Made by a program: the position numbers and the translations under genes. The notes beneath the pieces are model-generated. The model saw only the letters and a list, made by a program, of their open reading frames with translations, made no database searches and was not told where the DNA came from. 62,698 nucleotides of DNA. Source: an uncultured Candidatus Micrarchaeota archaeon (GTDB taxonomy: Archaea > Micrarchaeota > Micrarchaeia > Micrarchaeales > Micrarchaeaceae). Positions 35,648 through 61,209 of this stretch are shown one piece after another. The DNA is taken from the NCBI GenBank assembly GCA_963741095.1, contig CAVUGN010000006.1, positions 1 to 62,698 on the forward strand, in the 5' to 3' direction. Positions within the stretch are counted from its first letter, which is position 1. The number at the start of each line of letters is the position of its first letter.

Positions 35648-35835
35648 TCAATCCCAAAGATGTTATTTTTGGATAGGTTATTATGTCTTGCCAGAGGGCA
35701 GCGGATTCCAAGAATGCGGAGTTTATTCGGTTGCCTTCAACACAATCCCCGATGCGCCCAAAACCACACACCGAAACTCGTATATATCTGATACCGGTTC
35801 AATGATGGTAAAGTTCAGGTATGCGGCGAAGTGAA

Positions 35836-36369
35836 ATGGAAACCCACGGCAACAGGGACGGGAAGATGACCGCTCAGAGGGCGGACGCGATAAAAGCGTT
35901 TGTAAGGCAGAGGGAAAGCTCATCGGACGATGCGGTCAGCAAGAGTGTTGTTGGTTTGAAGCGCATCGTCAGCGATGATAAGGCGAAGGTGCTGGGCATG
36001 GAGCTGATAGAGGAGATACGGAAGGATCGGATCGACCTAAAAAGGGTCGAGGAACTGATACTCGGCGGCGCGGACACGAACCTAAAGCACGATGGGGATA
36101 TGACTCCGCTGATGTGGGCTTCATACCTCGGCAGGGATGAGGCCGTCGAGGCATTGACGTCCGGCTGCGCGGACCTGGATTTTAGCAACAAATGGGGCCA
36201 CACCGCGCTGATGTACGCGTCAATTCACGGCGCGGACAAGTCCGTCAAAATACTGCTGGATCATGGCGCCAATCCGAATTGCAAGAACTATGACGGAAAG
36301 AGGGCTATTGATTACGCAAAGAGCGATGTCACAAGGAAATTGCTTGCGGATGCAGTGAGGGGTAAGTGA
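35836..36369 (+). CDS. Ankyrin-repeat protein with the conserved leader
   Basis: TPLMWAS, GHTALMYAS, LLDHGANPN. Confidence 0.9.
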   Translation: METHGNRDGKMTAQRADAIKAFVRQRESSSDDAVSKSVVGLKRIVSDDKAKVLGMELIEEIRKDRIDLKRVEELILGGADTNLKHDGDMTPLMWASYLGRDEAVEALTSGCADLDFSNKWGHTALMYASIHGADKSVKILLDHGANPNCKNYDGKRAIDYAKSDVTRKLLADAVRGK

Positions 36370-36370
36370 G

Positions 36371-36814
36371 ATGGAACGCAGCGCGAACAATGGCGGCAGG
36401 ATGACCGTGCAGCGTGCAGACGCGATAAAGGCGTTCGTAAGGCAGTCGGAGGATATGGCCAACGGGATGACTGCACGGGCAAAAGACGATTCTATGAGGA
36501 TGGAAATGAGCGCGGCAGAGAGAAAATGGTTCGGAATGGCGCTCATCGAGGAAACGATCAAGGGCGATGGGAGCGTCGATAAGATCAGAGAGATTTTGGA
36601 CAAGGGCGCAGACGTCAATGCTGCGGACAGCCTTGGCAGAACGGCGCTTATGTGGGCTGCGCGTCGGAGCCATGCAAATGTCATCGAGACACTGGTGAAC
36701 AGCGGCGCCAGAATAGATATTAGGACCAACGACGGCAGTACGGTTTTTGACTACATAGTCGACGAGGACATAGAGAAGCTGCTCGAGGACCTGACGGAGG
36801 GTAGATCGAGATGA
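36371..36814 (+). CDS. Ankyrin-repeat protein with the conserved leader
   Basis: GADVNAADSLGRTALMWAA. Confidence 0.9.
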   Translation: MERSANNGGRMTVQRADAIKAFVRQSEDMANGMTARAKDDSMRMEMSAAERKWFGMALIEETIKGDGSVDKIREILDKGADVNAADSLGRTALMWAARRSHANVIETLVNSGARIDIRTNDGSTVFDYIVDEDIEKLLEDLTEGRSR

Positions 36815-37450
36815 AAACCGATGCAAACAAGGACGGAAAAATGACCACAGACCGAGTGGAAGCGATAAGGGCCTTTGTCCAGCGGTCCGAAGGCGCGATC
36901 GAAAACGGAATCAGAGGAATGATGGCCATGAAGCCTGCTGCCATCAGCAAGGAAGAGGCGAACAAGTTTGGAATAGAGCTTGCCGTAGAATCACACAAGG
37001 GCAATCCGGACATGGACAGGGTGAACAGGCTGATAAGCCAGGGGGCGGACTTGAACGCGACTGATCCATTCGGGCAGACGGCGCTGATGAACCGCCACGA
37101 TAAGAGACAACAGCGATCTGGTCGCGATGCTGATACGCAGCGGCGCCGATGTGAACGCGGAGGCGCACGAACAGGGCAGGATGACCGCGCTGCTTTTCGC
37201 CTCACAATTGGGCAACTGCGCGATCATAAAGATACTGCTGGACGGCGGGGCGCGCATGGCCGCGGAACGCAATATGGACCGGACGCCGCTGATGCTGGCC
37301 GCAGCGAACGGTAAGGGTGATGCCGTCAGGCTGCTGCTGGACCGCGGCGCAGACCCGGCACAGAAGGACCATTACGGCCTTACCGCGGAGCAGATCGCAT
37401 ACGCTGAAAGCATAAAGAACATGCTCAGGAATGCCGTGGGGGCGAAGTGA
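36811..37450 (+). CDS. Ankyrin-repeat protein with the conserved leader, 1-bp frameshift near 37090
   Basis: Removing one base after GQTALM restores ..ATIRDNSDLVAMLIRSGADVN into ORF 37127..37450. Confidence 0.8.
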
Positions 37451-37451
37451 G

Positions 37452-37928
37452 GTGGAGACGAGCGCGAACCGGGACGGAAGGATGACCACGGACAGGGTGG
37501 AGGCGATAAGGACATTCATGGCCGGCTTCGGCCCGCTGCTCGTGCTCATAGCGTCTTTTGCAACCAAGAAAGCGTACTGGAAGCTTGAGGGGATAGATTA
37601 CCTTTGCGGGTTCTTCTCTGTGCTTGCCTTGGTACTTTGGGCGGTGACTAAGGATCCCTCGATCGCAATCATTTTCGCCATAGCGACTGACGCGCTCGCT
37701 TCGATTCCGACAATCGCCAAGAGTTGGAGGCATCCGGAAACCGAATCTAGCTACTCATACGCCCCCAGCATAATAAGCGCCCTCACCGCGTTCACTGTGA
37801 TCACCGCTTGGACCTTCCCGGAGTACGCGTTCCCAGCGTATCTGGTCGTTATTAACATCATCTTGACGCTACCATGGTTTTGGAGGAAGGACACGTGGCT
37901 TGCGAAGAAACGGTCTCATAAATTATAA
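37452..37928 (+). CDS. Chimeric ORF: ankyrin-type leader fused to an N-terminally truncated multi-pass membrane protein
   Basis: VETSANRDGRMTTDRVEAIRTF followed directly by MAGFGPLL...PT..KSW.HPETE hydrophobic domain. Confidence 0.7.
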   Translation: METSANRDGRMTTDRVEAIRTFMAGFGPLLVLIASFATKKAYWKLEGIDYLCGFFSVLALVLWAVTKDPSIAIIFAIATDALASIPTIAKSWRHPETESSYSYAPSIISALTAFTVITAWTFPEYAFPAYLVVINIILTLPWFWRKDTWLAKKRSHKL

Positions 37929-37934
37929 TCCAAA

Positions 37935-37992
37935 TCTGGCCTCACTATAGCCGCGTCCTCGCCTTTCCGGCCTGGCTTGGGCGCGGCAGCTT
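37935..37992 (+). repeat. Short cassette-boundary repeat variant
   Basis: TAGCCGCGTCCTCGCCTTTCCGGCCTGGCTTGGGCGCG. Confidence 0.55.
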
Positions 37993-38002
37993 ATTCCCTT
38001 AT

Positions 38003-38079
38003 ATGGCTACAATCCATATGTTTGTAGATAATGTAGCCATTATGTCCACAAGTTATATATATCTTGATGTTGTAGCCAT
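38003..38079. promoter_or_regulatory. Operator ATGGCTACA-N20-TGTAGCCAT plus a third half-site, and a TATA box
   Basis: Half-sites at 38003-38011, 38032-38040 and 38071-38079; TTATATA near 38052. Confidence 0.7.
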
Positions 38080-38082
38080 ATC

Positions 38083-38991
38083 ATGTCGTTCATAGAGAAG
38101 CAGAGCCATGGAGGCCACACCTACTACTACCTGGTCAAGAACGTCAGGGTGACGCCGACGAAAGCAAAGAAGCTGAGGATATTTCTTGGCAGGAAGCTTC
38201 CTGAGCATGATGAGCTGCAGAAGCGCTTCCTTGAGCTCGAGAAGAGGTCCATGGAACTGCACGGGGCAAGATGGCTGCCCAAGCTCCTCGCGGAGAGGGT
38301 CGACGACCTCAGCGCATCGATCATAGTGTTCCGCAAGACCGCTTCGGACGTGCTGCCGAAGGATTTCATGGTGCGCTACACCTATAACACGAACGCGATA
38401 GAGGGGAACCGCCTGACGCTCAGGCAGACCGCGCTGGTCATAAGCGACAGGGTCGCACCTGAAGGCGCCAGGACGAACGATGTGGTCGAAGCGCTCAACG
38501 CCCTCGATGCTTGGGAGTACGTGAAGGCGTACAAGGGAGCGCTGAACAAGAAGTTTGTCTGCAGGATACAGTATGAGGTGACAAAGAACACCTCTTGCAG
38601 AATTCAGGGCGATTACAGGGACAGCGAGGTCAGGATAGTGGGTTCGGAGCTGATACCGCCGAAACCCGGAGAGGTTCCGGGATTGCTGGACAGCCTTTTC
38701 GGCAGCTTCCGCACGGAGAGGAAGGCGCTGCATCCAGTGGAACTTGCCTCGTTCCTTCACAACGGATTGGTCAAGATCCACCCGTTCACCGACGGGAACG
38801 GGAGAACCGCCAGGCTGCTGATGGACTGGGTGCTGCTGAGGAACCGTTTTCCCCCAGCCATAATAGAGGTCACGAACAAGGAGAGATACTACAAGGCTAT
38901 CGAAAATGCGGATAGGGGCGACCAGAAGCCCTTTGCTGAATTCCTGGCAAACCAGCTGCTCGCGCAGTACACGGTGGCTCTTCCTGATTAG
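38083..38991 (+). CDS. Fic-family protein (canonical AMPylase motif)
   Basis: Inhibitory-type TNAIEGN and HPFTDGNGRTAR. Confidence 0.92.
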   Translation: MSFIEKQSHGGHTYYYLVKNVRVTPTKAKKLRIFLGRKLPEHDELQKRFLELEKRSMELHGARWLPKLLAERVDDLSASIIVFRKTASDVLPKDFMVRYTYNTNAIEGNRLTLRQTALVISDRVAPEGARTNDVVEALNALDAWEYVKAYKGALNKKFVCRIQYEVTKNTSCRIQGDYRDSEVRIVGSELIPPKPGEVPGLLDSLFGSFRTERKALHPVELASFLHNGLVKIHPFTDGNGRTARLLMDWVLLRNRFPPAIIEVTNKERYYKAIENADRGDQKPFAEFLANQLLAQYTVALPD

Positions 38992-39000
38992 GTATCTTGG

Positions 39001-39070
39001 ATCGCCCTCGCCGTCTACCAAACCTTTAAACGCTTATCTTCGGTTAGCTTAGTGTGGTTGGATGGCAGGG
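39001..39070 (+). repeat. Cassette-boundary repeat variant providing the promoter and start of the next gene
   Basis: CCAAACCTTTAAACGCTTATCTTCGGTTAGCTTAGTGTGG..GGATGGC. Confidence 0.6.
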
Positions 39071-39409
39071 AATGGGAGCATAATCGTGGGTACGGTCGCG
39101 GGTGCAGTGGTACTGGTGCTGCTCGGCTGGCTGCCGGTGCTGGGCGCGCTCATAGCGGGCATCGTCGCGGGGCATCTGGCCAAAGGCTGGCTCAGGGGCG
39201 CTTTCGCGGGGCTTCTCGCAGGGATTCTCGGCTTTTTCGTGCTGGAGTTCGTGCTCACGGGGATAGGCGGCGCCCTGGCCGGAAGCATTGGAGCCCTGGG
39301 CGGCGGGGTCCTGGGCGGGATCATCGGGATATTGGAGATCGGGAACGTGCCCTTGGCCGCGATCGGCGGTCTGATCGGGGGCATACTGACCTCCCGGAGC
39401 TCCAAGTAA
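39062..39409 (+). CDS. Gly-rich small membrane protein (DUF5518-like)
   Basis: GxxxG-rich hydrophobic helices. Confidence 0.75.
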   Translation: MAGNGSIIVGTVAGAVVLVLLGWLPVLGALIAGIVAGHLAKGWLRGAFAGLLAGILGFFVLEFVLTGIGGALAGSIGALGGGVLGGIIGILEIGNVPLAAIGGLIGGILTSRSSK

Positions 39410-39440
39410 ATGCGGTTGTAGGGCCAAGACTAATCTTTCC

Positions 39441-39495
39441 GTCTTAGCCCTCGCCTTTCCTGCTTGGCTTGGAGGTTGGGTTCATTTGGCTTAAT
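39441..39495 (+). repeat. Short cassette-boundary repeat variant
   Basis: TTAGCCCTCGCCTTTCCTGCTTGGCTTGG; related copy at 40105-40132. Confidence 0.55.
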
Positions 39496-39546
39496 GTTAT
39501 AGAAAGGTTTTTATATCTATTAATACGTTATTAATATGGTGTTAAT

Positions 39547-39792
39547 GTGGTAAAGGCCATTATAGACATAAGCGAGGATGCGAATACCATCCTGAACATA
39601 ATCAAGGCGGAGTACGGTCTGAGAGACAAGTCCCAGGCAATAGACAGGATGGCGGAGGATTACAAGGAGATGGTTTTTGAGCCCAAAGTCAAGGCTTCGT
39701 ATCTAAAGAAATTGAAAAGGATATCCAAAGAAAAGACCGTGCGCATAGGCACGATGGAGGACTTCGACAAGATGTACCACATCAAAGGGTAG
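39547..39792 (+). CDS. DUF2683-like antitoxin
   Basis: MVKAIIDISE.AN.ILNIIKA.YGLRDKSQAI. Confidence 0.8.
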   Translation: MVKAIIDISEDANTILNIIKAEYGLRDKSQAIDRMAEDYKEMVFEPKVKASYLKKLKRISKEKTVRIGTMEDFDKMYHIKG

Positions 39793-39801
39793 GCTGGTGC
39801 G

Positions 39802-40074
39802 ATGGCCGTCTACACTTATGACGTTAAGGATCATGTAAAGAGGCTATTCCAAAAAATGGAAAAGAGAAGCCCTATGCAACTGTTAATCATCAGGAAAAAG
39901 TTGATTCAGATACTGGATGATCCCTATAGATTCAAGCCGCTAAGTGGCCAGATGAAAGGGATAAGGGCAGTTCACATAGACAAAAGCTTTGTTCTGACCT
40001 ATTCGATAGACGAAACCAGAAAGGTTGTAACCATTGAGGATTACGACCATCACGATAATATCTACGAGAGTTAG
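39802..40074 (+). CDS. RelE/YafQ-family mRNA interferase toxin
   Basis: FKPLSGQMKG.R.VHI..SFVLTY...DHHDNIY. Confidence 0.85.
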   Translation: MAVYTYDVKDHVKRLFQKMEKRSPMQLLIIRKKLIQILDDPYRFKPLSGQMKGIRAVHIDKSFVLTYSIDETRKVVTIEDYDHHDNIYES

Positions 40075-40165
40075 ATTTTAGCTTCCTCTTTCGCTTTTTG
40101 GTCCACGCCCTCGTTTTTCCGGCTTGGCTTAATGCGCCGTCCGAAGAATTTCGCAACTCTTTGGA

Positions 40166-40378
40166 CTATGGTTTTGGAGTTTGTCCATCCGTTTTATTCT
40201 TAACCAAAAACCGCAACGATTGAAAAATGAACAAAACCACTATGCCCAATACGGTGATTACAACCCCTATTATGTACAATTTCAATACGGCTGCGAATAT
40301 CCAGGCAAAAACGATAGCAAGAACTACAATAACGAACATCCCTTCGGCATCGTTTTTGACAAACCCCATGATGAACAT
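40166..40378 (-). CDS. Small two-TM membrane protein
   Basis: Hydrophobic hairpin. Confidence 0.55.
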   Translation of the reverse strand: MFIMGFVKNDAEGMFVIVVLAIVFAWIFAAVLKLYIIGVVITVLGIVVLFIFQSLRFLVKNKTDGQTPKP

Positions 40379-40570
40379 TGGGGAACCATGCTTAAAACCT
40401 CTCCTGACGGCGCGGAACCTTATAAGGGGCCTTAGTAGGGGCACACGGACAAGCGCGCATCAAGGGCATAAGCTCAGCAGAGCAACAGAGGGGGGGCGGA
40501 ACAGGAGCCGACGCAACAGGCAGAAAACCGCGCCTCCCAGTGAGGTGCGTATGCCTGATTTTGTCAAGCG

Positions 40571-40846
40571 CTATTCTATCGGGAAGTCTAGCTGCTCGGC
40601 GGGGATACCCAAAGACAGACCGTAATCGACGGCGGGCTTCCATGTCTCTTTCTTGTCATGGTTGAACTTGAAGATCCTGTCCTTGAACGCGACAACCACT
40701 TCGCGATCGTTCCAAAAATGAGCGTACCATTTCTCCTTCAGGCTGCGGGAAATTCTTTCTATGTCGAGCTCTGTGGCTTCGACAGCATAAAAGTGCCAAT
40801 GGAGCTCGGATGAGATGCTTGAATCGGTCACTTTGATTCCTGCCAT
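40571..40846 (-). CDS. Hypothetical protein
   Basis: WYAHFW...F.D.IF...W....YG..LGIP.EQLDF. Confidence 0.65.
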   Translation of the reverse strand: MAGIKVTDSSISSELHWHFYAVEATELDIERISRSLKEKWYAHFWNDREVVVAFKDRIFKFNHDKKETWKPAVDYGLSLGIPAEQLDFPIE

Positions 40847-40911
40847 TACCTTTCATCGATCAGGCTCTCGCCGATCACGGTGCCCCTGTAGATTTTCCGC
40901 ATGCAATCGCA

Positions 40912-41403
40912 TCATTTCAGCAGTTTCACGAAAGCTTCGGGATTCGACGGCGTTATCAGGTAATGCTTTCCGTTCTTGTCGGTTATCAGCACGCCATCGG
41001 TGAAGTTGGATATTATGGACCTCGTCCAGCCCGCTCCGGCTATGTAGAACAAGCCGCAGTAGCCCCCAGCGCCGACCCTCATGTGAATGGGCACCCTCGT
41101 CCGCTCCACCTTCCTTATGTCGCCCAGTTTCAGCCGTATGACCATGAACGGAGACCAGGAATAGAGAGCGCCGTTTTCGATGGTGTAGGAAGTCCTGTAG
41201 AAGCAATACGCAGTGAGGCCCAGTATGGCGAACACCAGCGCGCCTATGCCAAGGAAGATGGCCGGCCTGCCGGTCAGGAAAGATATTGAAGCAAAGAGAA
41301 GCGCGATGAAGATTGCCATGCCGAGGTATAACCCGCCGATCCAGTTGCTGATCCTTGGCCTGTTGATTGTCTTTTTTGCTGAGGTTTTGGTTGGCATATT
41401 CAC
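40912..41403 (-). CDS. Membrane protein with a bacterial-type PH domain
   Basis: Two TM helices then Y.IENG.L, I.L.DI.KV, LITPSNPEAF. Confidence 0.75.
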   Translation of the reverse strand: MNMPTKTSAKKTINRPRISNWIGGLYLGMAIFIALLFASISFLTGRPAIFLGIGALVFAILGLTAYCFYRTSYTIENGALYSWSPFMVIRLKLGDIRKVERTRVPIHMRVGAGGYCGLFYIAGAGWTRSIISNFTDGVLITDKNGKHYLITPSNPEAFVKLLK

Positions 41404-41508
41404 ACCCTAGGCGCGTCATTTAGGATTGGCAGCAAGGTTATAATTAAGCTTCTGGCTTCTGGTGAAGATTTATTAAGGGCATTTATGATATATTGGCGAA
41501 GTGCGGAC

Positions 41509-42672
41509 ATGGAGGCAAAGCGTAGGATAATATCGCAGGGGACGATGCTGATAATAATCCTGGGAGTCGTCAGCCTCTTCGGCGACTTCGTCTATGAGGG
41601 AGGCAGGAGCATAATACCGCAGTTCTTCACAACGGGCCTGGGAGGTTCGGTCTTTCTCCTTGGCGTTGTTCTTGGGGTTGGAGACTTCATCGGATATTCG
41701 ATAAGGCTGGTCAGCGGCAGGCTGGCGGACAAGACTCATGACTACTGGGCGATAACCTTCATCGGCTACATAATAAACATGCTTGCGCTTCCGCTGCTGG
41801 CCTTCACGGGCAGCTACATAATCGCTGCGATACTCATAGTCGCGGAGCGCGCAGGAAAGGGGATACGCTCGCCGCCGAAGGATTACATAATATCCACGGC
41901 GGCGAAGGAGGGCAAGGTGGGCAGGGCCTTCGCGATAAACGAGGCTCTCGACCAGACTGGCGCGATAATAGGTCCGATAGTCATGTCGCTGATAATACTC
42001 TACAGGAACGATTACAGATTGGCTTTTGAGTTCCTCTTCCTGCCAGCTGTTGTCTCGCTAGCGACGCTCGCCATCGCCTACTGGTACCACAAGAAGGTGC
42101 CGAAGAAGAAGCACGTGATGGACAAGAGCAAGATCATGACCTTCAGGCGCTTCATACTCTACTCGCTTGCAGTGGCGGTCAGCGCTGCCGGCCTTTACAA
42201 TGTATCGTTCATGCTGGTCAGCGCCCAGGGGGTACTGAGCACCTACCTGATACCGCTCATCTTCCTCACAGCCATGGTAGGAGAGGGATTCTTCGGCGTT
42301 GTCTTTGGGATCCTGTACGACAAGGTAGGCAAGGGCCTTGTGTACATCGGGCTCATAACCGCAGCGGTATTGCCGTTCGTGCTGATGAAATCGCTGCCGC
42401 TCTTCCTGTTCAGCGCTGCGCTGCTCTTCGGCGCGGTGACAGGCATACAGGACACGGTCATGAGATCGGTAGTGGGCAGCATGATACCCGAAAAGAAGAG
42501 GGGGCACGCCTACGGCATATTCAACAGCTTCTACGGCTTCGGCCTTATGGCGTCGAGCATAGTCATCGGCTATCTTTATTATTCGCTGGGGATAGCGACG
42601 ATGTACATACTTGCTACACAGGCAATAGCGCTAGTTCTGCTGTATCTCTCTTTCAGGAAGGCTGGCGCATGA
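41509..42672 (+). CDS. MFS transporter
   Basis: About 12 TM helices; SGRLAD, ERAGKGIRSPP, GILYDKVG. Confidence 0.92.
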   Translation: MEAKRRIISQGTMLIIILGVVSLFGDFVYEGGRSIIPQFFTTGLGGSVFLLGVVLGVGDFIGYSIRLVSGRLADKTHDYWAITFIGYIINMLALPLLAFTGSYIIAAILIVAERAGKGIRSPPKDYIISTAAKEGKVGRAFAINEALDQTGAIIGPIVMSLIILYRNDYRLAFEFLFLPAVVSLATLAIAYWYHKKVPKKKHVMDKSKIMTFRRFILYSLAVAVSAAGLYNVSFMLVSAQGVLSTYLIPLIFLTAMVGEGFFGVVFGILYDKVGKGLVYIGLITAAVLPFVLMKSLPLFLFSAALLFGAVTGIQDTVMRSVVGSMIPEKKRGHAYGIFNSFYGFGLMASSIVIGYLYYSLGIATMYILATQAIALVLLYLSFRKAGA

Positions 42673-42730
42673 TCTGATACAGGGCTGTGTGCGCACACGT
42701 GGCTATATACCCGGAGATGCTAATACTATC

Positions 42731-43003
42731 ATGTCGAAATCGAAAAAGGCGCCCGAATGGCCGAGCCTATCGAGATTCATGATGATCAGGAGGCGCAGCA
42801 AGCTGCAGGCCGCAAGAGGAGCAGCTGACGTCCAGGTCAGGGAACTGACCAGGGAGAGGGACAGCATAAGGGAGAATGCGAAGCTTTCGGGCAGGGGCAG
42901 CAACCGCGAGGATAAGGCTCTTTACGTCGCGGAGGGCGCACTCAGGTCCATAAACAGGAAGATAGCGAGCAACGAGAGGGAGCTGGGTCATCCGCAAGGA
43001 TGA
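42731..43003 (+). CDS. Small basic coiled-coil hypothetical protein
   Basis: TATA at about 42704, ATG 42731. Confidence 0.5.
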   Translation: MSKSKKAPEWPSLSRFMMIRRRSKLQAARGAADVQVRELTRERDSIRENAKLSGRGSNREDKALYVAEGALRSINRKIASNERELGHPQG

Positions 43004-43050
43004 TGCGAATAAGGCATAGCGCAGGAAATGGGGCGCGGAGCTTTACCGCA

Positions 43051-43425
43051 TCAGTCTTTCCTAAGTAGTTGCGCGGTCTGGTACACGCCGGCGACGATCT
43101 CGTTCGTGATCGAATCGACAAACTTTGCTATCAGCTGCCGGTCTGGCCCGTCGCGCGGAGAGGACACCTCGATGCTTATGGTCTGGTTCATCAGGTTCAT
43201 GTCGAAAGTCAGGGTTAGGTCATTCTGCACGCACTTCGGCAGCTTTTCTTTGGCGGCATCAAAGACCCTCTTGTTTATCGCGTTAAGGTCTATGTTGGCA
43301 GGCATGCGATTTTTTATATTGCCAGGTATAATGGCCCACTCGCAATCGCCACCTGAACAGCCGCCCCAGCCGCGCGCAGAAAAGGAATTGACGGCACTTT
43401 CTGACAAGGGCATATTCTTGTTCAT
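43051..43425 (-). CDS. Orphan protein
   Basis: GGTGA RBS; motif at 43453-43466. Confidence 0.65.
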   Translation of the reverse strand: MNKNMPLSESAVNSFSARGWGGCSGGDCEWAIIPGNIKNRMPANIDLNAINKRVFDAAKEKLPKCVQNDLTLTFDMNLMNQTISIEVSSPRDGPDRQLIAKFVDSITNEIVAGVYQTAQLLRKD

Positions 43426-43514
43426 TCACCCACCGATAGCCCTCTATTTTTTAAGATATTTATTCCTTTCGCGAGGCGTTTTTGCCGATCGAACCCGCAA
43501 GACGCAAGGGGGAT

Positions 43515-43727
43515 TTATTTGCCCTTCGGCGCGACCAAAACTATTATTATCAGCGCGGCAAGCCAGGTGTAGAAGTTGAAGGGTATCCTCAGGCTGAACA
43601 GCTCGTTCAACGCCCAGATGAACACGTACGGTATGACAATGGCGGCAACGATCGCGGCGATTATCCCGAAAACAATCACCACTGGCGACCACGCGCCGAA
43701 TTTTTTCAAGAATCCTTTTTTGGCCAT
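43515..43727 (-). CDS. Small membrane protein
   Basis: Two hydrophobic helices; TATA upstream. Confidence 0.65.
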   Translation of the reverse strand: MAKKGFLKKFGAWSPVVIVFGIIAAIVAAIVIPYVFIWALNELFSLRIPFNFYTWLAALIIIVLVAPKGK

Positions 43728-43807
43728 GCGCTCACAATATCACTAACCCACAAAAGATATTTAAAATTTTTGCAGGCTGTTTTTCGGCTTGCTGGTGAAA
43801 ATTTCCA

Positions 43808-44628: not shown

Positions 44629-44664
44629 CGTAACACTCACTATTCCATGAATTCTATGAGATAT

Positions 44665-54601: not shown

Positions 54602-54618
54602 CGCTTAGGAGTGAGAAT

Positions 54619-54951
54619 ATGAAAAAATCGGACCAAGACATGGACAAGTTTGTCAAGAAGGGGATGGATTTCGGCGTGGGGGTCGCATACATCGCAGTCA
54701 AGGCCATGACCGGAGCACTGGACAAGCTGGAGAAAGAGGGCAAGATAAACAGGAAGGACAGCGAGAGGTTCGTCAGGGAGACGGTAAAGAAGTACGAATC
54801 CCAGGGGGAGCAGTACGCCAAGACCGTCAAGAGCCAGATGGACACGCTCACGAAGTCCGCGCCTTTCGTCACCAAGAAGGAGATGAAGGAGCTCAATGCG
54901 AGGATAGACAGCATAAGCAAGCTGCTCAACCAGCGCAAGGGCAAGAAGTGA
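54619..54951 (+). CDS. Phasin-like coiled-coil protein
   Basis: FGVG..., L.KEGKI...S, TK.E..EL..RI; typical neighbour of UbiB-like genes. Confidence 0.7.
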   Translation: MKKSDQDMDKFVKKGMDFGVGVAYIAVKAMTGALDKLEKEGKINRKDSERFVRETVKKYESQGEQYAKTVKSQMDTLTKSAPFVTKKEMKELNARIDSISKLLNQRKGKK

Positions 54952-55011
54952 TGTTGGGATGAACCGTGCGGGCCTGCGCTCGCACGGTCTTCATTCTGGC
55001 AACAAAGCGCA

Positions 55012-55416
55012 TCACTTTTTCTCGAAGTACTTTTGCAGAAGGTTCCAATAGTAGTCCCTCCAGCCATCGGCGTAGTCCTTCATCTGCGACTTCGGCACCC
55101 TCGTGTGCAGCATCGTCAGTTCAGTCTTTGCACCGACCTTTTTGAGCGTTATCGTTAGTATGGATGGCGGATATCCTTCTGGCCATTCGGTCGTGCTCCA
55201 CTCCTGCACTATCCTCTTTCCCTTGACAAGCTCGATGAACTTGCCGGTTATGTAATCGTCCCATGCGGCCATCCTGCCGCCGACCTTTGGCACTATTTTT
55301 GCCCCGCTGCCGGTGAACTTCGAATGTATCTTCGAATCCAGGTAGGCTTCGTACACCTCTTCGGGTGCCGCGTCTATGAGGATCCTCTGCTTTATTGTGC
55401 CCGTCACGATCGCCAT
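55012..55416 (-). CDS. SRPBCC/AHSA1-domain protein
   Basis: APEEVYEA, RIVQEW, GWRDYYW. Confidence 0.88.
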   Translation of the reverse strand: MAIVTGTIKQRILIDAAPEEVYEAYLDSKIHSKFTGSGAKIVPKVGGRMAAWDDYITGKFIELVKGKRIVQEWSTTEWPEGYPPSILTITLKKVGAKTELTMLHTRVPKSQMKDYADGWRDYYWNLLQKYFEKK

Positions 55417-55420
55417 AGGA

Positions 55421-55816
55421 TCACATTATGATACCGCTCCGAACAGATATAAGATTGCGTATGGCTAACGCTGAAGCGCATAAAAAAAGAAAAAGACAGA
55501 AATGCGCAGTACGCATCATGCGTGACTGCTTCGCGAAATCGGTCACGCCCGGTATCGCCACATCGGCGTTCGTCGAGGCCATGTACCCTATGTAAAGGCC
55601 GTACAGCCATGTAAGCAGCCCGAGAATCCCGCCTATGATTGGAACGTAGAACAGTATTGTCCCTATCACCCCAAGCAATAGTATCGACTGTATCGCATGC
55701 TGCTTCTTCCTCTTGTCTGTTCCGCTGATCAGGAAGAAAAGTATGCCCGTTAGCCATCCCAGAAAGTATATCAGTATGTAGCTGAAGTCTCCCTGCTTAG
55801 TTTTTGCGGTTGCCAT
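55421..55816 (-). CDS. DUF4870-like small membrane protein
   Basis: YFLGWLTGILFF...HAIQS; the C-terminal tail may be a read-through extension. Confidence 0.7.
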   Translation of the reverse strand: MATAKTKQGDFSYILIYFLGWLTGILFFLISGTDKRKKQHAIQSILLLGVIGTILFYVPIIGGILGLLTWLYGLYIGYMASTNADVAIPGVTDFAKQSRMMRTAHFCLFLFLCASALAIRNLISVRSGIIM

Positions 55817-55867
55817 AGCATCGTTTACACTGGCTCAGTGCAGGTTTTTAATGGTTGCGCAGAGCCG

Positions 55868-56332
55868 TTATTCGAGCTCCGCAGCAAGCCGGTCCAAAGA
55901 TTCATTCCAGCCCTGCTTCATGCCGGGCAGGTACAGGTAAGCCTCGAGCGCGTGCACCTTGGTGACTCTCGCCCTGGCGGTGACCTTTGTCTTCTTGCCG
56001 CGCTCGGCGAAGATGAAGGTCTGGAGCACCTCGAAGATGGGTTTCTTGTTCCGGTCCAGCGCGGCAGCGGAGATCACAAGCCTTTCGGGTTTCACGATCT
56101 CCCGATAGACCCCGCTTATCGGGTATTTTGCCCCGTCCGGGGCGCGCATGTCAATCTTGATTGAGCATCCGGTCTTGAGATTTATCCTGCAGGATGGACT
56201 TGTGAAATCCTTCGGCCCCCACCATCGCACCAGCTTTTTCGGGTTGGTGAATGCCTCCCAGACGGCTGAGCGCGGCGCATCGAATACGCGCGTCACTACC
56301 ATATCTTTTTTGCCTTCGCCCTTGGTCGCCAC
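55868..56332 (-). CDS. SRPBCC/AHSA1-domain protein
   Basis: TRVFDAPR..VW.AFT.P....WWGP, GWNESLDRL. Confidence 0.9.
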   Translation of the reverse strand: MATKGEGKKDMVVTRVFDAPRSAVWEAFTNPKKLVRWWGPKDFTSPSCRINLKTGCSIKIDMRAPDGAKYPISGVYREIVKPERLVISAAALDRNKKPIFEVLQTFIFAERGKKTKVTARARVTKVHALEAYLYLPGMKQGWNESLDRLAAELE

Positions 56333-56442
56333 TTTTCCACCGATTTTATATCGAAAGTTTAAATTGACTGCCCCGCGTTACAGTTCCGTACATGGTAATT
56401 GCAGGGAATGTTTATATAGCAATCAGAACTTAACCGATAAAT

Positions 56443-56889
56443 GTGACAACCGCGTCGAAAAGTGGGGAAAATTCCGTATCCACGTACAAATTGATACTTT
56501 ACACTGCTCCGATAATGCCCGGAGTGCCAGCCAGTTACGGCAGCATAACCAGCTCAGAGGAAGGGAAAACCGGTTCTGGAAGCTTGTGCATAAGGATAAA
56601 GATGTCGCCGCGCGAGTTCGATGCTACCCGGCCTGAGATGAAAGAATTGATGCAGGAAGCCAAGAATAATATAGACAGATTTGAATCGGGTATGCTTGGA
56701 TCGGTAAAATTGAGGTCAGAGGGGCAGGAGAAAGGCAGGGTCGAATGGAACTTGAGGTACGATGGGAAAGGCTATGCGGAGCTTTTCATTAATTCATGGA
56801 ATCCGATTTCCAGATGGATTGTGGACAGCAGCCTCGTCAGGATTGGGGGGGTCATAAAAGGCAGGGTCATAATGAATCCCCAACCGTAA
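56443..56889 (+). CDS. Orphan protein
   Basis: TTTATATA about 30 bp upstream of the GTG start. Confidence 0.6.
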   Translation: MTTASKSGENSVSTYKLILYTAPIMPGVPASYGSITSSEEGKTGSGSLCIRIKMSPREFDATRPEMKELMQEAKNNIDRFESGMLGSVKLRSEGQEKGRVEWNLRYDGKGYAELFINSWNPISRWIVDSSLVRIGGVIKGRVIMNPQP

Positions 56890-56975
56890 AGTTAAGTTGT
56901 TTATCTGTAAAAAATTAGGGCGCTAGGCGAAACACTGGCTCCGCCCGCGCCACAGGAATTTAGACGGCTTAGAGC

Positions 56976-57233
56976 TTACTTGCCGCTGTCGCAGTTGCAC
57001 GAGCCGTCTTTGCAGCAATCGCAGTTGCAATCGCTGCCGCATCCGCAACTACCGCTGCAGCCGCATCCGCAGCCGGAATCCGAGCTCATTGCCTTCAACA
57101 TCTTCGATTCGGCCATCATGTAGCCGTTGATGAATGCACGGAGCTCCTTCTCGCCCATCGAATCCAGCATCTCCTTTTTCATCTTCCACATCTTCATCTT
57201 TCCCTCCATCTTCTCATTTTTTCCTTGTTCCAT
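56976..57233 (-). CDS. Small protein with a metallothionein-like Cys/Gly/Ser C-terminus
   Basis: CGCGCSGSCGCGSDCNCDCCKDGSCNC. Confidence 0.7.
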   Translation of the reverse strand: MEQGKNEKMEGKMKMWKMKKEMLDSMGEKELRAFINGYMMAESKMLKAMSSDSGCGCGCSGSCGCGSDCNCDCCKDGSCNCDSGK

Positions 57234-57327
57234 CCAATCACAAGGATACTGCTCTTGCTAAGGCTAAAAAGCTTTCGCAGGCGTTCCGCTAATCCGGATT
57301 TTTTGACTGAAAATCGGCCCCTTCGCA

Positions 57328-58116
57328 TCATATTTCCAGTATCTCCCCGTTCCCTTTTGACTCGTCGCCCCTGCGCAGCATGGCGCACACATAGGGCGTG
57401 CTCATCTCCCCAGCCACGGCTTCAGGCTGCGCGGTGCCGATGAAGACGTATCCCTTCTTGAACAATTCCCACATGGCCCTCACGGGGCGGGCATATATCT
57501 CCCATTCGCTGAACCGGCGGCCTGCCAGATGCCAGAGCACGCCGAAGTACTTTACATAAAGAGCAGCCGAATAGGACATGGCCATCATCGCTTTTTCTGC
57601 GGCCTCGGCCTCGTTCAGCAGAACTATCCCGTTGACGGGCATGTCGATGAGCGCCCTGACCAGGTCCATGTCGAGCTTGGGCCTTGATTCCGCTTCGTGC
57701 ATCACCTTTGCGACACTGGGATTGCTCCTTGACACTGCCTCGATCACCGCATAGTCCACTGCAGAGGCGACATTCTTGAGACCGGCATTCTCTGCAGCAT
57801 TCGAAGCGACGGTGAAGGCCTTTATCTCCGTCATTCCCGTCGCTATCGCGGACGAAGCTTTTTTGGCATCGGCATGCCCGAGCAGCGATTCGATCTGGGC
57901 GAATGAATCCTTGTCTTCCTTCATTAACGCCTCTGATGCTATCATCGCGCCCGCAAGTTTGCGCCCGTAAAATCCCCGCAGCGCGGTTCCCGGATTCGGA
58001 TCAGGATTAGACAGGTTTACCTCTCTGATATCATGGCGGAAGAAATTGCCAATCCAACGCTGCTGGTACTGTGGCAGGACCGACACGACTTTCTGCAGGT
58101 CAATATCCTTCGACAT
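57328..58116 (-). CDS. Orphan Ala-rich helical protein (likely start MSKDID)
   Basis: GCATAAATA motif at about 58149-58157. Confidence 0.65.
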   Translation of the reverse strand: MSKDIDLQKVVSVLPQYQQRWIGNFFRHDIREVNLSNPDPNPGTALRGFYGRKLAGAMIASEALMKEDKDSFAQIESLLGHADAKKASSAIATGMTEIKAFTVASNAAENAGLKNVASAVDYAVIEAVSRSNPSVAKVMHEAESRPKLDMDLVRALIDMPVNGIVLLNEAEAAEKAMMAMSYSAALYVKYFGVLWHLAGRRFSEWEIYARPVRAMWELFKKGYVFIGTAQPEAVAGEMSTPYVCAMLRRGDESKGNGEILEI

Positions 58117-58183
58117 CGGATTACTGCTGTTTAAGTTGTCCAATCGGGTATTTATGCGTTCTGAACGAACCTCGCTTTTCGGC

Positions 58184-59779
58184 TCAGTTCTGCTCTGCCT
58201 TGCCGATGCCCACGTACTCCGCGTAGAACAGGGCGTCCTCCTTGTCGAGCTTCCTGAGCCCCACTAGGTTCTTGACCGCCGCATCGTCGTAACCGGCCGC
58301 CGCGTTGCTGCTCGCCGAGAGGCTGAGCAGGTATGACGAGAGGCACCCGGACACCTCTTTCGCTATGATCTTGACATGGTTTTTTATGGTGCCAGCTGCC
58401 AGTATCCCGTCAAGTGCGGCTTCGCGCTTATCGAAACGGAAGCGATCGCTGCTTCTTTTCGCGAACCACGAGGCAATTCCGGGCAGCTCGTCGTTCTTGG
58501 CCCTGCCGTCGAGCATTTCAAGTGCGCCCCTTGCGTCTTTTATCGTGTTCTCAGTCACGATACTCCTTATCTCGTCAATGCCGCGTATGATCCGAGTGTT
58601 CTCCTCCTCGATGCTGGAGTATCTTCCCGTGGTGACCAAGGATCTAAGCGATGCGGCCATGCGCATGGAATCGATTTTGACCAGTTCGTTCAGCAATGCG
58701 TTAAGCGTAGCCGACCCTTCCGGGCGTGAGATTGCGGTTTTTATGGCGCTCGTCATTCTCCGTTCTTCCTCTGGGGGGTAGTTGTACATCGCTTTTGCCT
58801 TTATTGTTTCGATGAATGCATTGTCCACCCCGGCATCCGCCAACTTCTTGCGGTAGTCGTCTTCGGTGTTGCTTATTTCATCAGACATGAGCTTCCTTAT
58901 GCGGTCTATTCCCTGCAGCATGCCACGGGCGAATGCCCCCCATTGTTTGTCAGAAGACTCTTCATTGTCAGGACTCTCCAGCGGAGCAACCCTTAACAAG
59001 GATCGGACAGCGGCCTCGCCGTGATACTTGATCAGGGTGTCGATCTCTTTGATTGACTGGATGTTCAGCGTAGCGCTCGTGTTCTCATTGCCGAAGAGCG
59101 CCGCGCTGGAGTCGGCATAAGCGGCAAGCGACATCAGGTGCCTCGCTACGCCATCGTTGATTATGTCGGCAATCGCCTTGCTAATTACGCTGATTTTCTG
59201 CTCCCACAAATCATCAAGGGGAGATAGCTCCTTTATTCTCACGAGCTCCTTCCGCACGTAGTTGTTGTTCGATTCGAAATCGAACTTGTCGTTCTGCCTC
59301 TCTTCGATCCAACGGCAGATTGCAGCTAGGTCTGGGATGCCTTGCTCGCCGAGCATCGAAGCGGCCTTATTCAGGTATCCCAGACTTCCGTAGTTGATGG
59401 CCTCCACCGTTCTCTCGAATGTTTTTGACATTTCGAGCGCGTGTAATTCGCGCATCGGGCCTTCCCCCATCATGCCGATGTAGGCGACCATTCGCATTGC
59501 ATAGTATTCGGCATCCGCGAAGATCAGGGCGCCCACCGCGACGCTGTTTGAATAGTCCAGATTTTTGCGGGAATCGGAAACGAGTGCGTTGTGCTCTTTC
59601 ACAATGCTTTCAAACTCCTTGATGCCGTCGTTCAGATTAGCCCTTTTCAGCGAATAGATTATCCTGTCCTCGATTTTGTTGGTCTCCGAGAGCAGGTAGG
59701 ACATGAGTGCATCCGTGCCGCTCTGCAGGTGCTGGTAACGGACTTCCAATGCCTTGTCTTGATTCTTGCCTGTTGTCAT
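58184..59779 (-). CDS. Orphan helical protein with an internal duplication
   Basis: L..I..W...R..D.F.F and L.SL.A....A each occur twice. Confidence 0.75.
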   Translation of the reverse strand: MTTGKNQDKALEVRYQHLQSGTDALMSYLLSETNKIEDRIIYSLKRANLNDGIKEFESIVKEHNALVSDSRKNLDYSNSVAVGALIFADAEYYAMRMVAYIGMMGEGPMRELHALEMSKTFERTVEAINYGSLGYLNKAASMLGEQGIPDLAAICRWIEERQNDKFDFESNNNYVRKELVRIKELSPLDDLWEQKISVISKAIADIINDGVARHLMSLAAYADSSAALFGNENTSATLNIQSIKEIDTLIKYHGEAAVRSLLRVAPLESPDNEESSDKQWGAFARGMLQGIDRIRKLMSDEISNTEDDYRKKLADAGVDNAFIETIKAKAMYNYPPEEERRMTSAIKTAISRPEGSATLNALLNELVKIDSMRMAASLRSLVTTGRYSSIEEENTRIIRGIDEIRSIVTENTIKDARGALEMLDGRAKNDELPGIASWFAKRSSDRFRFDKREAALDGILAAGTIKNHVKIIAKEVSGCLSSYLLSLSASSNAAAGYDDAAVKNLVGLRKLDKEDALFYAEYVGIGKAEQN

Positions 59780-59816
59780 CTTTTCACTCTAAAACATCAC
59801 TCGCTGATCTGGCATT

Positions 59817-60452
59817 TTACTTGCTCCTCATCTTTTCTTCGATCAATTCTTTTACTTCTTCATTTTTGACGTAAGTCAAAGCGGTGTATCCAAAACAATT
59901 CTCTGCTCCGGCATCCACATTCATGTTCAACATCATTTTGACGATCTCGTTGTTGCCGCCCTGTGCTGCATGGATCAGCAACGTGTTGTCGTCTTTGTCT
60001 TTTAGGCTTGCATCCGCCCCAAAATCCAGCAGGATCTTTGTAATTTTCATATTTCCGTGTATCGAAGCGTACATCAGTGCAGTTATGCCCCCGTGGTTTT
60101 TCATATTGGGATCGGCTCCGGCGTTGAGCAACGCTTCCACAATCTTGTAATGGCCTTTCAATGAAGCGCACATCAGCGCGGTCGCACCGCAGAAAGCGAA
60201 GTCGACATCGGCGCCTTTGCTTATCAGTTCCCTGATCTTGTTCGAGTTCGCGCTCATCTTATCCGATTCCGTGACAAGCTGCATCCCGAGCTGGGCTGAC
60301 TGCTCTTTGCTCACGATGGGCGGTCTTCTTAGTTCTATGGCGCTCTTGATGGTTTGATTGTCAACATCCGTGCCGAATTCTCTGACGAACGCTTTTATCG
60401 CGTCGGCTCGCTCCGGCGTCATCTTTCCATTGTTGTTCGCGCTCTGCTCCAT
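59817..60452 (-). CDS. Ankyrin-repeat protein with the conserved leader
   Basis: GATALMCAS, GITALMYAS, GADPN. Confidence 0.92.
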   Translation of the reverse strand: MEQSANNNGKMTPERADAIKAFVREFGTDVDNQTIKSAIELRRPPIVSKEQSAQLGMQLVTESDKMSANSNKIRELISKGADVDFAFCGATALMCASLKGHYKIVEALLNAGADPNMKNHGGITALMYASIHGNMKITKILLDFGADASLKDKDDNTLLIHAAQGGNNEIVKMMLNMNVDAGAENCFGYTALTYVKNEEVKELIEEKMRSK

Positions 60453-60453
60453 C

Positions 60454-61209
60454 TCACTTCGCCGCGTTTTTGAGTAGCTTCTTTATCTCTTTGTTTTTTG
60501 CGTAATCCATTGCCGTCCATCCTTCGTTGTCCTTCAGGTTTACGTTCGCATGTTTTTGCCCGGGGGCGCACACCATGGCGGATACAACGTCCGCCTTGCC
60601 TTCCAACGAGGCGCGCATCAGCGCAGTCCTGCCTTCATTGTCGGCCAGATCGGGGTCGGCTCCGTTGAGCATCAATTCCTTGACAATCCATTCGCAGCCG
60701 CGCGCCGCTGCCCTCATGAGGGCGGTCCTGCCTTCATTGTCCTGCGTGTCCAGGTTCGCGTGAGCGTTCATTAAAATTTCGAATATCTCCTCATGATTGT
60801 ACCATGAAGCGTACATCAGCGCCGTCTTTCCACCGTTGGTTTTGACATCCACGTCGGCGCCCAGACCAAGCAGCGTATCAACAGTGCTCTTTCGGTCTTT
60901 GCAAGCGGCGTACATCAGAGGAGCCAGGTCGTCATTGCTGTCCTTCGCATCTATCTCTGCCCCTTCGGATACGAGTTCCTTTATCTTTTTGTTGGAGGGA
61001 TGGTCTTGCTTGACCTCGTGGATCAGTTTCCCGTTAAGTCCTGCCACATCCTCCACCTTCGTCGTGTGCTTTCTTTCCTTTCCATTCAGATCAGCAATTT
61101 CCTTGCCGATCGGAGTGCCAGGAATTTCAGTTTCACGTCTTACGTACGCTTTCAATGCATCGGCTATCTCAGGAGTCATCCTTCCGTCCTTCTGGGCGTT
61201 GTTTTCCAT
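60454..61209 (-). CDS. Ankyrin-repeat protein with the conserved leader
   Basis: GKTALMYAS and DNEGRTALMRA (twice). Confidence 0.92.
   Translation of the reverse strand: MENNAQKDGRMTPEIADALKAYVRRETEIPGTPIGKEIADLNGKERKHTTKVEDVAGLNGKLIHEVKQDHPSNKKIKELVSEGAEIDAKDSNDDLAPLMYAACKDRKSTVDTLLGLGADVDVKTNGGKTALMYASWYNHEEIFEILMNAHANLDTQDNEGRTALMRAAARGCEWIVKELMLNGADPDLADNEGRTALMRASLEGKADVVSAMVCAPGQKHANVNLKDNEGWTAMDYAKNKEIKKLLKNAAK

Follow-up and report, generated by a model that had tools for sequence, protein, structure and literature searches.

The window examined here, 62,698 nucleotides of contig CAVUGN010000006.1 from an uncultured Candidatus Micrarchaeota archaeon (assembly GCA_963741095.1), contains six ORFs that a first-pass annotation described as two clusters of ankyrin genes with a common N-terminal leader of about 25 residues, a candidate export signal. 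The question raised by this locus is whether the leader is a separate, selected module and, if so, what it might do. The Micrarchaeota group has a symbiotic lifestyle. Little is known about the means by which DPANN archaea influence their hosts, or about the proteins that pass through the cell–cell contact. A single leader peptide would be an experimental handle on where such proteins go and what recognises them.

The leader defines a genome-wide family

All six ORFs are present at the starts first reported, and their first 26 residues can be aligned without gaps to give the consensus ME.SAN.DG[KR]MT..R.DAIKAFVRQ, in which M1, G9, M11, T12 and A18 are invariant. The first-pass annotation had proposed scanning the genome with a profile of the leader. 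The six-ORF profile matches 34 places in the 1.08 Mb genome (94% complete), with E-values from 4.7e-18 to 4.1e-4. In the six-frame hmmsearch 34 frames were found at E≤1e-3 and the next frame drops to an E-value of 2.7, so the 34 copies are far beyond chance. The leader ORFs had been placed in two clusters; the family is in fact genome-wide and arranged mostly in head-to-tail arrays. The observation of a leader is real and was understated: the six window ORFs are part of a lineage-specific multigene family with 34 members in this Micrarchaeota (DPANN) archaeon. Assuming roughly 1,200 genes, we estimate that about 3% of its genes are tagged.

The leader core is inside the first ~30 residues in all 34 copies, 28 of 33 alignment rows have methionine at profile position 1, and the core peptide is kept in five genes despite differing N-terminal extensions. 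Ankyrin repeats (Ank_2, PF12796; Ank, PF00023) score above the Pfam gathering thresholds in 26 of the 34 leader ORFs, leaving eight non-ankyrin carriers. Conversely, of the 27 ORFs that encode ankyrin repeats in this genome, 26 have the leader; the exception is an ankyrin-AAA ATPase on contig 7.

Of the eight non-ankyrin carriers, seven lie at the ends of arrays or close to them, and the eighth is solitary. A Pfam scan of seven non-ankyrin carriers and of the membrane-protein ORF in the window gave no family, and a word-based search with the C-terminal domain of the contig 5 protein 18642 returned only its own 99% variant. The C-terminal domains of two carriers also occur elsewhere in the genome without the leader. 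The one carrier whose origin could be traced is a leader stub joined to a truncated gene next door; at least one of the eight is an accidental fusion. Because of this, and because seven of the eight are near array ends, the support for free modular use is less than the count implies; recombination at array edges could make such fusions without any function.

Organization of the genes in the window

The plus-strand cluster opens with the remnant of an array-gene 3′ tail, a stop codon and a junction (35812–35835), with the motif GGCGAAGTGAAATGGA at 35825–35840. There is no ankyrin gene upstream of this junction. The frame that ends there reads ...YAAK*, resembling the ...GAK* and ...AAK* tails of array genes, and there is a TATA-like sequence, TATATATC, at 35781–35788. 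Gene 1 (35836–36369, 177 aa) has its leader codons at 35836–35910, followed by a linker and about four ankyrin repeats from residue 47. Gene 2 (36371–36814, 147 aa; leader codons 36371–36445) starts 1 nt past the stop of gene 1, and a 4-nt overlap joins the stop of gene 2 to the start of gene 3 (36811–37450; leader codons 36811–36885). Gene 3 is frameshifted: one base at 37088–37091 divides it into the ORFs 36811–37314 and 37091/37127–37450.

The run ends with a chimeric ORF (37452–37928, plus strand; GTG start, alternative ATG at 37431) that has no ankyrin repeats. Here about 22 leader codons (37452–37517) are joined in frame to a 5′-truncated polytopic membrane protein. In three relatives the alignment of the membrane-protein homologues begins at residue 23–32 of this ORF, and the two homologues inspected (in G003 and G007) are about 200 aa long and have extra N-terminal sequence.

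On the minus strand there is a pair of genes, 60454–61209 (251 aa; leader codons 61135–61209) and 59817–60452 (211 aa; leader codons 60378–60452). The second starts 1 nt past the stop of the first and encodes five ankyrin repeats from residue 49. The description of all six ORFs as ankyrin genes is right for five of them, which match Ank_2 with E-values from 1.8e-9 to 3.2e-39 (gene 3 via its second, post-frameshift ORF), and wrong for 37452, in which the leader stub precedes a membrane gene that has lost its 5′ end. The minus-strand pair is in a fast-evolving setting. Two orphans beside it have 36% and 57% identity to their same-genus orthologues; a nearby UbiB-like protein has 88%.

Junctions and turnover of the arrays

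The junction motif GGCGAAGTGARRTGGA, with up to two mismatches, occurs four times in the window (35825, 36360 and 37441 on the plus strand; 60448–60463 on the minus strand), where shuffled sequence is expected to give 0.13 and none of 100 shuffles reached four. Conserved gene junctions had been claimed, including one at 35825 with its upstream partner missing, and both points are borne out. Across the genome 14 of 19 intra-array junctions consist of stop, 1 nt and ATG, and the GTGAG of the motif resembles the complement of the 16S rRNA 3′ end (...GATCACCT). The stop–start junction probably serves translational coupling.

The C-terminal tail of the family is also conserved (...[IM]K.LL..A.KGK), and tail remnants were found ahead of array-first genes. 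On contig 5 there is a chimeric gene whose 5′ part is 97.7% identical to one neighbour and whose 3′ part is 99.5% identical to the other, and at the syntenic spot in a same-genus genome the array is absent. Together with the leader stub on the truncated membrane gene, these observations support the expansion and contraction that had been suggested. The paralogues are old (median pairwise identity 37%), so conservation of the leader reflects more than recent duplication.

Selection acts on the leader peptide

Over codons 7–25 of 28 copies the mean pS is 0.62 against a mean pN of 0.26, and the synonymous sites of the leader are near saturation. Arg15 (26 of 28 copies) is encoded from both codon families (CGA, CGT and CGG; AGA and AGG), Thr12 (27 of 28) uses all four codons, and Ala5, Ala18 and Thr12 each use three to four within the leader. 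Selection maintains the leader at the protein level. Mean top-residue frequency is 0.65 in the leader, 0.36 in the linker, 0.47 in the ankyrin part and 0.38 in the tail, making the leader the most conserved segment, above even the structurally constrained repeats.

The leader is outside the ankyrin stack

Both AlphaFold models show the leader as a helix of low confidence, at residues 13–25 in one and 13–28 in the other. By 10-residue blocks the pLDDT over residues 1–40 is 54/77/60/50 and 43/56/51/43, compared with 97–99 in the stack. The linker is also of low confidence (43–60) and varies widely in length and sequence between members, and the stack has its own N-cap. Structural alignment with DARPins, caps included (Z 24–25, rmsd 1.1–1.4 Å, 153–160 residues), spans only model residues 46–54 to 206–211. 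We rejected the leader as the ankyrin N-cap, since an alignment that contains an N-cap begins at residues 46–54 and the helix (13–25/28) is upstream of the linker. The case named in advance as fatal to the idea, an ordinary N-cap that never occurs on other domains, fails both ways: the leader is outside the stack and is found on eight non-ankyrin proteins. The description of a separate module, followed by a linker and a set of repeats that both vary between members, the repeats in number, is upheld, with conservation at the protein level.

Residue class is kept at nearly every helix position, whichever face it lies on. Complex prediction of residues 1–48 with residues 49–211 gave ipSAE values of 0.02 and 0.01 (mark, 0.32), which in a run without controls count neither for nor against an interaction. 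Because the confidence of the helix is only moderate to low, it may still pack loosely on the stack.

The leader is not a classical signal, and no secretion genes adjoin the arrays inspected

Sec, Tat and class III (pilin-type) signals were rejected, as the leader has no hydrophobic core and no RR motif. None of the 34 proteins has more than four consecutive hydrophobic residues among its first 30, where an h-region would have seven or more, and the highest 10-residue Kyte–Doolittle mean in the leaders is 1.05 (membrane fusion excluded). At E≤10, a Pfam search of ten N-termini (60–66 residues) gave just two chance-level rows. A PDB sequence search with the leader gave nothing meaningful (best E 0.13), and an ESM Atlas search by features gave no usable leader match. 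F-box, PRANC and SOCS-box adaptors were discarded by sequence, no such Pfam family being found in the scanned full-length proteins or N-termini, although the leader may be analogous to them in function. A cargo tag for a microcompartment or encapsulin was also rejected, with no match to PF00936 or PF04454 in the 94%-complete genome.

Co-occurring secretion genes had been proposed as a check, and none adjoins any of the ten array loci inspected. The genome has three T2SSE-type and five HerA/DUF87-type (HerA/VirB4-like) ATPase genes, all away from the arrays; the nearest to an array is at 1178–3331 in the window, 32 kb off. Pfam and NCBIfam searches of the array neighbours gave no recurring partner. 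PADLOC assigned the family to no defence system; its matches were generic similarities to ankyrin, AAA, HerA and Fic proteins.

Distribution outside this genome

A scan of DPANN genomes had also been proposed. A sample of 400 other genomes of the phylum has no copy of the leader, nor was it found in the 40 relatives searched or in the three nearest genomes by marker protein. Beyond the phylum sample, a profile search of 1.84 billion protein representatives gave only four foreign carriers (E 7e-11 to 6e-7 in that library), which are 40–45% identical to the nearest paralogue in this genome over the tblastn-aligned part. Two of these, P0014 and P0030, are encoded on one 195,762-bp contig; the other two are P0025 and P0027.

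Other searches added no relatives. In word-based searches the leader region of the 60452 protein returned itself only, among four candidates, and the family alignment gave seven matches among 8000 crowded candidates, all of them matched to this genome at 97–100% identity. A search of metagenome contigs based on the foreign carrier P0025 gave 191 pattern matches, none of which is a relative. A degenerate DNA pattern of the leader core had no match in genome, metagenome or viral contigs; since at the protein level it covers no more than 14 of the 34 copies of this genome and one of the four foreign ones, these negatives carry little weight.

Ankyrin genes as such are present in 19 of the 40 relatives and are in some cases tandem (G018, G019, G020 and G033), but none has this leader. 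The array genes of G019 begin directly at the N-cap and have a common C-terminal tail of about 35 residues instead. Full-text literature searches turned up no publication that deals with families of ankyrins, or with leaders, in Micrarchaeota or DPANN. With so narrow a distribution, the function of the leader is not general to DPANN, and any result will be of limited generality.

Possible roles of the leader

A typical member can be pictured as a tag of about 25 residues, in which a short coil would lead to the invariant G-[KR]-M-T and a helix of 13 residues (R-[AV]-[DE]-A-[IL]-[KR]-A-F-[VI]-R-Q), then a variable and probably flexible linker of about 20–35 residues, a complete ankyrin stack of three to more than ten repeats with its own N- and C-caps, and the conserved C-terminal tail, followed at most array junctions by a stop 1 nt before the next ATG. 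We tentatively prefer, as somewhat short of an even chance, the reading that the leader is a lineage-specific tethered docking or targeting tag. One common partner would recognise the tag, and the variable ankyrin surfaces and few orphan domains would give differing binding specificities. In a group of symbionts, the tag would most likely route proteins to, or hold them at, a machinery or site of host contact. This is consistent with 34 copies separated by a clean gap from noise, with protein-level selection, with a separate low-confidence helix outside the stack, with retention of the tag by the foreign proteins and on non-ankyrin cargo, and with the fast-evolving setting of the minus-strand pair. 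Set against this are the lack of secretion genes by the arrays, the very narrow distribution, and the near confinement of the tag to one paralogous family, so that common descent explains most of the co-occurrence with ankyrins; moreover, the non-ankyrin carriers are near array ends. In its boldest version, transfer out of the cell, the leader would be the recognition signal of a hitherto undescribed, Sec-independent route that delivers a diversified set of ankyrin and orphan effectors into or onto the archaeal host. We regard this as doubtful; if it is true, the 34 genes would be the first sequence-defined effector repertoire with a common translocation tag in DPANN archaea.

Much of the same evidence bears on other readings. 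That the tag is nearly exclusive to ankyrin proteins, that its helix is conserved on all faces, as expected if it is buried in a groove, and that the pLDDT of residues 11–20 reaches 77 in one model would all suit a role within the family, in which the helix is a regulatory pseudo-ligand that folds onto its own ankyrin groove (autoinhibition) or, in head-to-tail assemblies, onto that of a paralogue; eukaryotic ankyrins offer examples of autoinhibition by a tethered segment. With a leader-helix pLDDT of 43–56 in the second model, a highly variable linker and eight carriers without an ankyrin domain, we consider this a serious alternative that is nonetheless unlikely. The arrangement in tandem, in which head, tail and junction are all conserved, the contig 5 chimera, the tail remnants, the stub on the membrane gene and the non-ankyrin carriers at array ends could also be read as a leader with no separate function, the best-conserved stretch of one tandemly duplicated ancestral gene, its non-ankyrin carriers being by-products of unequal recombination. 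This too is improbable, though it deserves attention: the leader stays the most conserved part of paralogues whose synonymous sites are nearly saturated, which requires purifying selection on the peptide itself, and it is kept in foreign homologues. The conserved junction and its GTGAG might instead point to conservation of the DNA or RNA, as a tract of recombination or gene conversion or as an element of translation initiation or coupling over the junction and first codons. For the leader this is largely refuted by the codon variation, as synonymous positions vary freely while amino acids are kept, and the core persists behind five differing N-terminal extensions; it is the least credible of the readings. 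Only slightly more credible, and still very improbable, is a degenerate PG_binding_1-like or helicase-associated (HA-like) domain formed by leader and linker and binding an envelope polymer or a nucleic-acid enzyme. Among PG_binding_1 proteins the leader profile matches P0033 alone (E 1.4e-6 in the 1.84-billion library), and it also matches the HA-domain repeat proteins P0031 and P0032. In a PG_binding_1 repeat, hhalign gives 91% probability over 24 columns that take in the loop and helix 2 and have the same spacing, DG-5-x-2-A[IV]..F. However, none of ten leader N-termini matches PF01471, PF03457 or a related family at E≤10, the motif is in one atypical PG_binding_1 protein of 39 library matches, and the pattern in common is that of a generic helix N-cap and amphipathic helix. 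PG_binding_1 (PF01471) is a three-helix domain of about 57 residues, of which the leader has just the 24-column local likeness to P0033, and the first helix is missing because there are only seven residues before DG. The likeness to the HA domain (PF03457, about 64 residues) is confined to some 11–12 residues (G-K-M-T-P-E-R-x-x-A-L) of P0031 and P0032.

If the leader is a docking or translocation signal, it would define a candidate effector set; if it is an internal regulatory helix, the family would be a clean natural case of tethered-helix ankyrin proteins.

Comparison with known systems

The encapsulation peptides of microcompartments and the cargo-loading peptides of encapsulins are short terminal amphipathic helices, and like the leader they are joined by a poorly conserved flexible linker to unrelated cargo; here no shell gene was found in the 94%-complete genome. 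The sequence-variable mosaic (SVM) proteins of phytoplasmas combine a conserved N-terminal signal with variable mature effectors. They resemble the present family in that conservation is highest in an N-terminal segment, in being lineage-specific and in belonging to a reduced genome, but their segment is a hydrophobic Sec signal peptide, in contrast with the hydrophobicity values of the leader given above.

The poxvirus ANK/PRANC (F-box-like) proteins and the metazoan ASB proteins (ankyrin and SOCS box) combine a constant module with a variable ankyrin array. As here, an invariant terminal module, which in those proteins is for docking, is found on a diversified ankyrin domain in many paralogues. 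Their modules are C-terminal, are 40–50 residues long and dock Skp1 or Elongin B/C, whereas the leader is N-terminal, is about 25 residues long and gives no Pfam match to the F-box, PRANC or SOCS families.

Finally, ankyrin effector repertoires are found in intracellular bacteria, namely the Ank proteins of Legionella and Coxiella, the ANK genes of Wolbachia and the Anks of Orientia tsutsugamushi. The bacterial proteins depend on identified type IV or type I systems and use C-terminal signals. The present family belongs to an archaeon, its common element is N-terminal, no secretion system dedicated to it was found next to its genes, and its export is putative. The two have in common large lineage-specific families of short ankyrin proteins, variable in repeat number and partly tandem, in a host-dependent microbe with a small genome and fast-evolving orphans.

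Leader ORFs in the window

The six ORFs reported to begin with a common leader of about 25 residues, a candidate export signal in the first-pass annotation, are all present in the ORF listing. Four lie head-to-tail on the plus strand (starts 35836, 36371, 36811 and 37452) and two form a pair on the minus strand (starts 61209 and 60452); their first 26 residues align without gaps and M1, G9, M11, T12 and A18 are invariant. Ankyrin repeats had been claimed for all six, which Pfam bears out for five. A one-base frameshift at 37088-37091, right after a ...TALM motif, breaks the 36811 gene in two, and the repeats carry on in the next frame up to 37450. The 37452 ORF has no ankyrin repeats according to Pfam; it has GTG where Met1 would be, and about 22 leader residues followed by a polytopic membrane protein. 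Homologues of the membrane protein in three relatives (G003, G007 and G032) align from query residue 23-32, and the two that were read (G003 and G007) are about 200 aa long with additional N-terminal sequence. The 37452 ORF is thus a leader stub joined to a neighbouring gene that has lost its 5' part.

The plus-strand array is immediately preceded by a minus-strand gene (34889-35647) whose 252-aa product, probably a surface protein, has a membrane anchor at its N-terminus, two internal repeats and a stretch rich in Ser and Thr. Pfam assigns it to no family. The window also holds three genes or gene fragments with a Fic/DOC domain (38083-38991, plus; 20616-21569, minus; about 24139-24288), for which PADLOC gives SoFic-like and PDC-S04-like rows; one of them immediately follows the plus-strand ankyrin array (Pfam Fic, E 4.9e-20). 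At 1178-3331 (plus) lies a 717-aa ATPase of HerA/FtsK/VirB4-like type, one of the genome's five DUF87-type ATPases (Pfam DUF87, 2.3e-9); it scores 66.8 bits against the CedB DNA-import model, far under the cut-off of 700.

Anatomy of the family and its junctions

Residues 1-12 of the leader are coil, ending G-[KR]-M-T, and residues 13-25 are a helix, R-[AV]-[DE]-A-[IL]-[KR]-A-F-[VI]-R-Q. The linker that follows differs between members in both length and sequence and shows a weak [DE]G..G..I.K motif; after it come an ankyrin stack that opens with its own N-cap (...LG.ELI.E......D.DKI.ELI..GADVN) and a family tail (...[IM]K.LL..A.KGK). The gene junctions are conserved, as had been noticed: the junction motif is the tail-stop-start junction, the window holds four matches against 0.13 expected, and 14 of 19 intra-array junctions consist of a stop, one base and the next ATG. 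The GTGAG of the motif is similar to the complementary sequence of the 16S rRNA 3' end, which suggests that the junction may serve in translational coupling. Five genes that stand first in an array or alone, 35836 and 61209 among them, likewise have a stop 1 nt upstream, and for one of these five (contig 5) the preceding remnant is clearly tail-like.

A genome-wide family

The profile built from the six leaders matched 34 places in the window's own genome (1,078,454 bases, 11 contigs, 94% complete). Six-frame hmmsearch with three different profiles returned the identical 34 frames at E<=1e-3, the next frame having E 2.7-4. The copies are spread over six contigs, mostly as arrays of two to seven genes, with the 16S rRNA gene 3.4 kb away from one of them; the family is therefore not a binning artefact. 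That rRNA gene (contig 1, 98605-100598) is archaeal (1314 bits) and carries an insertion of about 500 nt (1994 nt against a 1478-position model). Ankyrin repeats are present in 26 of the 34 carriers, and all Ank_2 matches in the genome fall inside leader ORFs except three in one contig-7 ORF (3165-4883, minus strand; 572 aa), the only ankyrin gene without a leader. Its N-terminal repeats are fused to an AAA+ ATPase, which was considered as a candidate receptor for the leader.

The remaining eight carriers lack ankyrin repeats. Seven occupy positions at an array end or close to one, and the eighth stands alone. No two share a C-terminal part, and Pfam assigns none of these parts to a family. 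The eight include the truncated membrane gene at 37452, a gene with no relative among 5.8 billion proteins except its own 99% variant, and two with further paralogues in the genome that lack the tag. The tag can thus head other domains, but array-edge recombination may lie behind at least some of these genes. The C-terminal domain of the leader protein at contig 9, 108723 has three paralogues that lack the tag (contig 2, 150262-150858, plus; contig 9, 114919-115554, minus; contig 5, 180501-181274, minus); they form a small orphan family with the motifs PDG[KR]PNPEWKVFYG and KGYG...D..G.LYVY. Pfam scans of two members, the contig-2 paralogue, whose N-terminus is loosely like the leader helix, and the one that carries the leader, gave no match.

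The arrays lie in fast-changing regions, to judge from the following. On contig 5 (13012-15830, minus strand) a chimeric middle gene lies between its two source neighbours: identity is 97.7% to the downstream one over its first 341 nt and 99.5% to the upstream one over its last 546 nt; either unequal crossing-over or assembly collapse could have produced it. At the spot syntenic to the minus-strand pair, the same-genus relative G001 has an unrelated 295-aa ORF. Just downstream of that pair (57328-59779, minus strand) are two orphans of 271 and 531 aa with no Pfam or NCBIfam family, which are 57% and 36% identical to their G001 orthologues as against 88% for the nearby UbiB-like protein, and so evolve very fast.

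Distribution

The leader was not found in 40 relatives searched, including G001 (84% complete), nor in 400 other genomes sampled across the phylum (93 from the same family), nor in the three genomes whose UbiB-like protein is closest to that of the window (88, 65 and 63% identity; all Candidatus Micrarchaeota). Ankyrin genes occur in 19 of the 40 relatives with different N-termini. In G019 (contig 2, 266932-270210), four tandem ankyrin genes without the leader have a common C-terminal tail of about 35 residues (...ELLRP.TE.II..ID..GG.RGVKLR.GF...), which may represent a terminal module of analogous kind in a different genus or may just reflect recent duplication. Among 1.84 billion protein representatives, 39 matched the leader profile at E<=1e-3: 27 that match the own genome (94.6-100% identity over the aligned part), four foreign leader proteins (40-45% identity) and eight unrelated proteins with internal matches (three of the eight examined). 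P0014, P0025 and P0030 among the foreign proteins have ankyrin repeats and P0027 does not; the longest contig recorded for each of P0014 and P0030 is 195,762 bp.

Possible role of the leader

Lacking a hydrophobic core, the leader is not a signal of the Sec, Tat or pilin type. Genes for a microcompartment or encapsulin shell were not found in the genome (94% complete). Nor is the leader an ordinary N-cap that never occurs on other domains, the case that would have spoken against a separate module: eight carriers lack ankyrin repeats, and AlphaFold models of two window proteins (211 and 177 aa, 28-row alignments) predict that it lies outside the ankyrin fold. The stack has pLDDT 97-99, while block means for leader helix and linker are low (54/77/60/50 and 43/56/51/43), and structural alignment with DARPins, N- and C-caps included, covers model residues 46-54 to 206-211 (Z about 25). 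Loose packing on the stack is possible in these models, and a regulatory helix binding in cis or to paralogues is a conceivable, if rather unlikely, role.

A nucleic-acid element is the least credible explanation. Over codons 7-25 of 28 copies mean pS is 0.62, near saturation, and pN 0.26; Arg15 is retained in 26 of 28 by CGN as well as AGR codons and Thr12 is encoded by all four codons, which shows conservation of the protein and not of the nucleic acid. We also think it very improbable that the leader is a degenerate form of a known helical domain. Pfam offers no family for it, even with the threshold relaxed to E<=10, and searches of the PDB and the Atlas gave no relative and no match, respectively. 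Outside the family its profile matches only short internal stretches, in helicase-associated (HA) repeats and in a single PG_binding_1 protein of atypical kind (91% over 24 columns by hhalign); these were read as a common helix-cap pattern instead of homology. Plain inheritance with no separate function is unlikely; the paralogues are old (median identity 37%), and the leader has the highest top-residue frequency (0.65, against 0.47 in the ankyrin part, 0.38 in the tail and 0.36 in the linker). The most likely function, which we put forward tentatively, is a common docking or targeting tag. The leader stands at the very N-terminus, is conserved all round and is joined by a flexible linker to cargo that varies, which is what a tethered recognition helix would show. 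Routing towards the host would be the most plausible use of such a tag; no partner, secretion machine or co-occurring secretion genes were found near the leader genes.

No account of such a leader, or of ankyrin families in Micrarchaeota or DPANN, came up in a full-text literature search. Symbiont ankyrin multigene families with a constant terminal module are of a familiar kind, and this family is alike; what is new here is the module itself, its N-terminal position and the archaeal setting.
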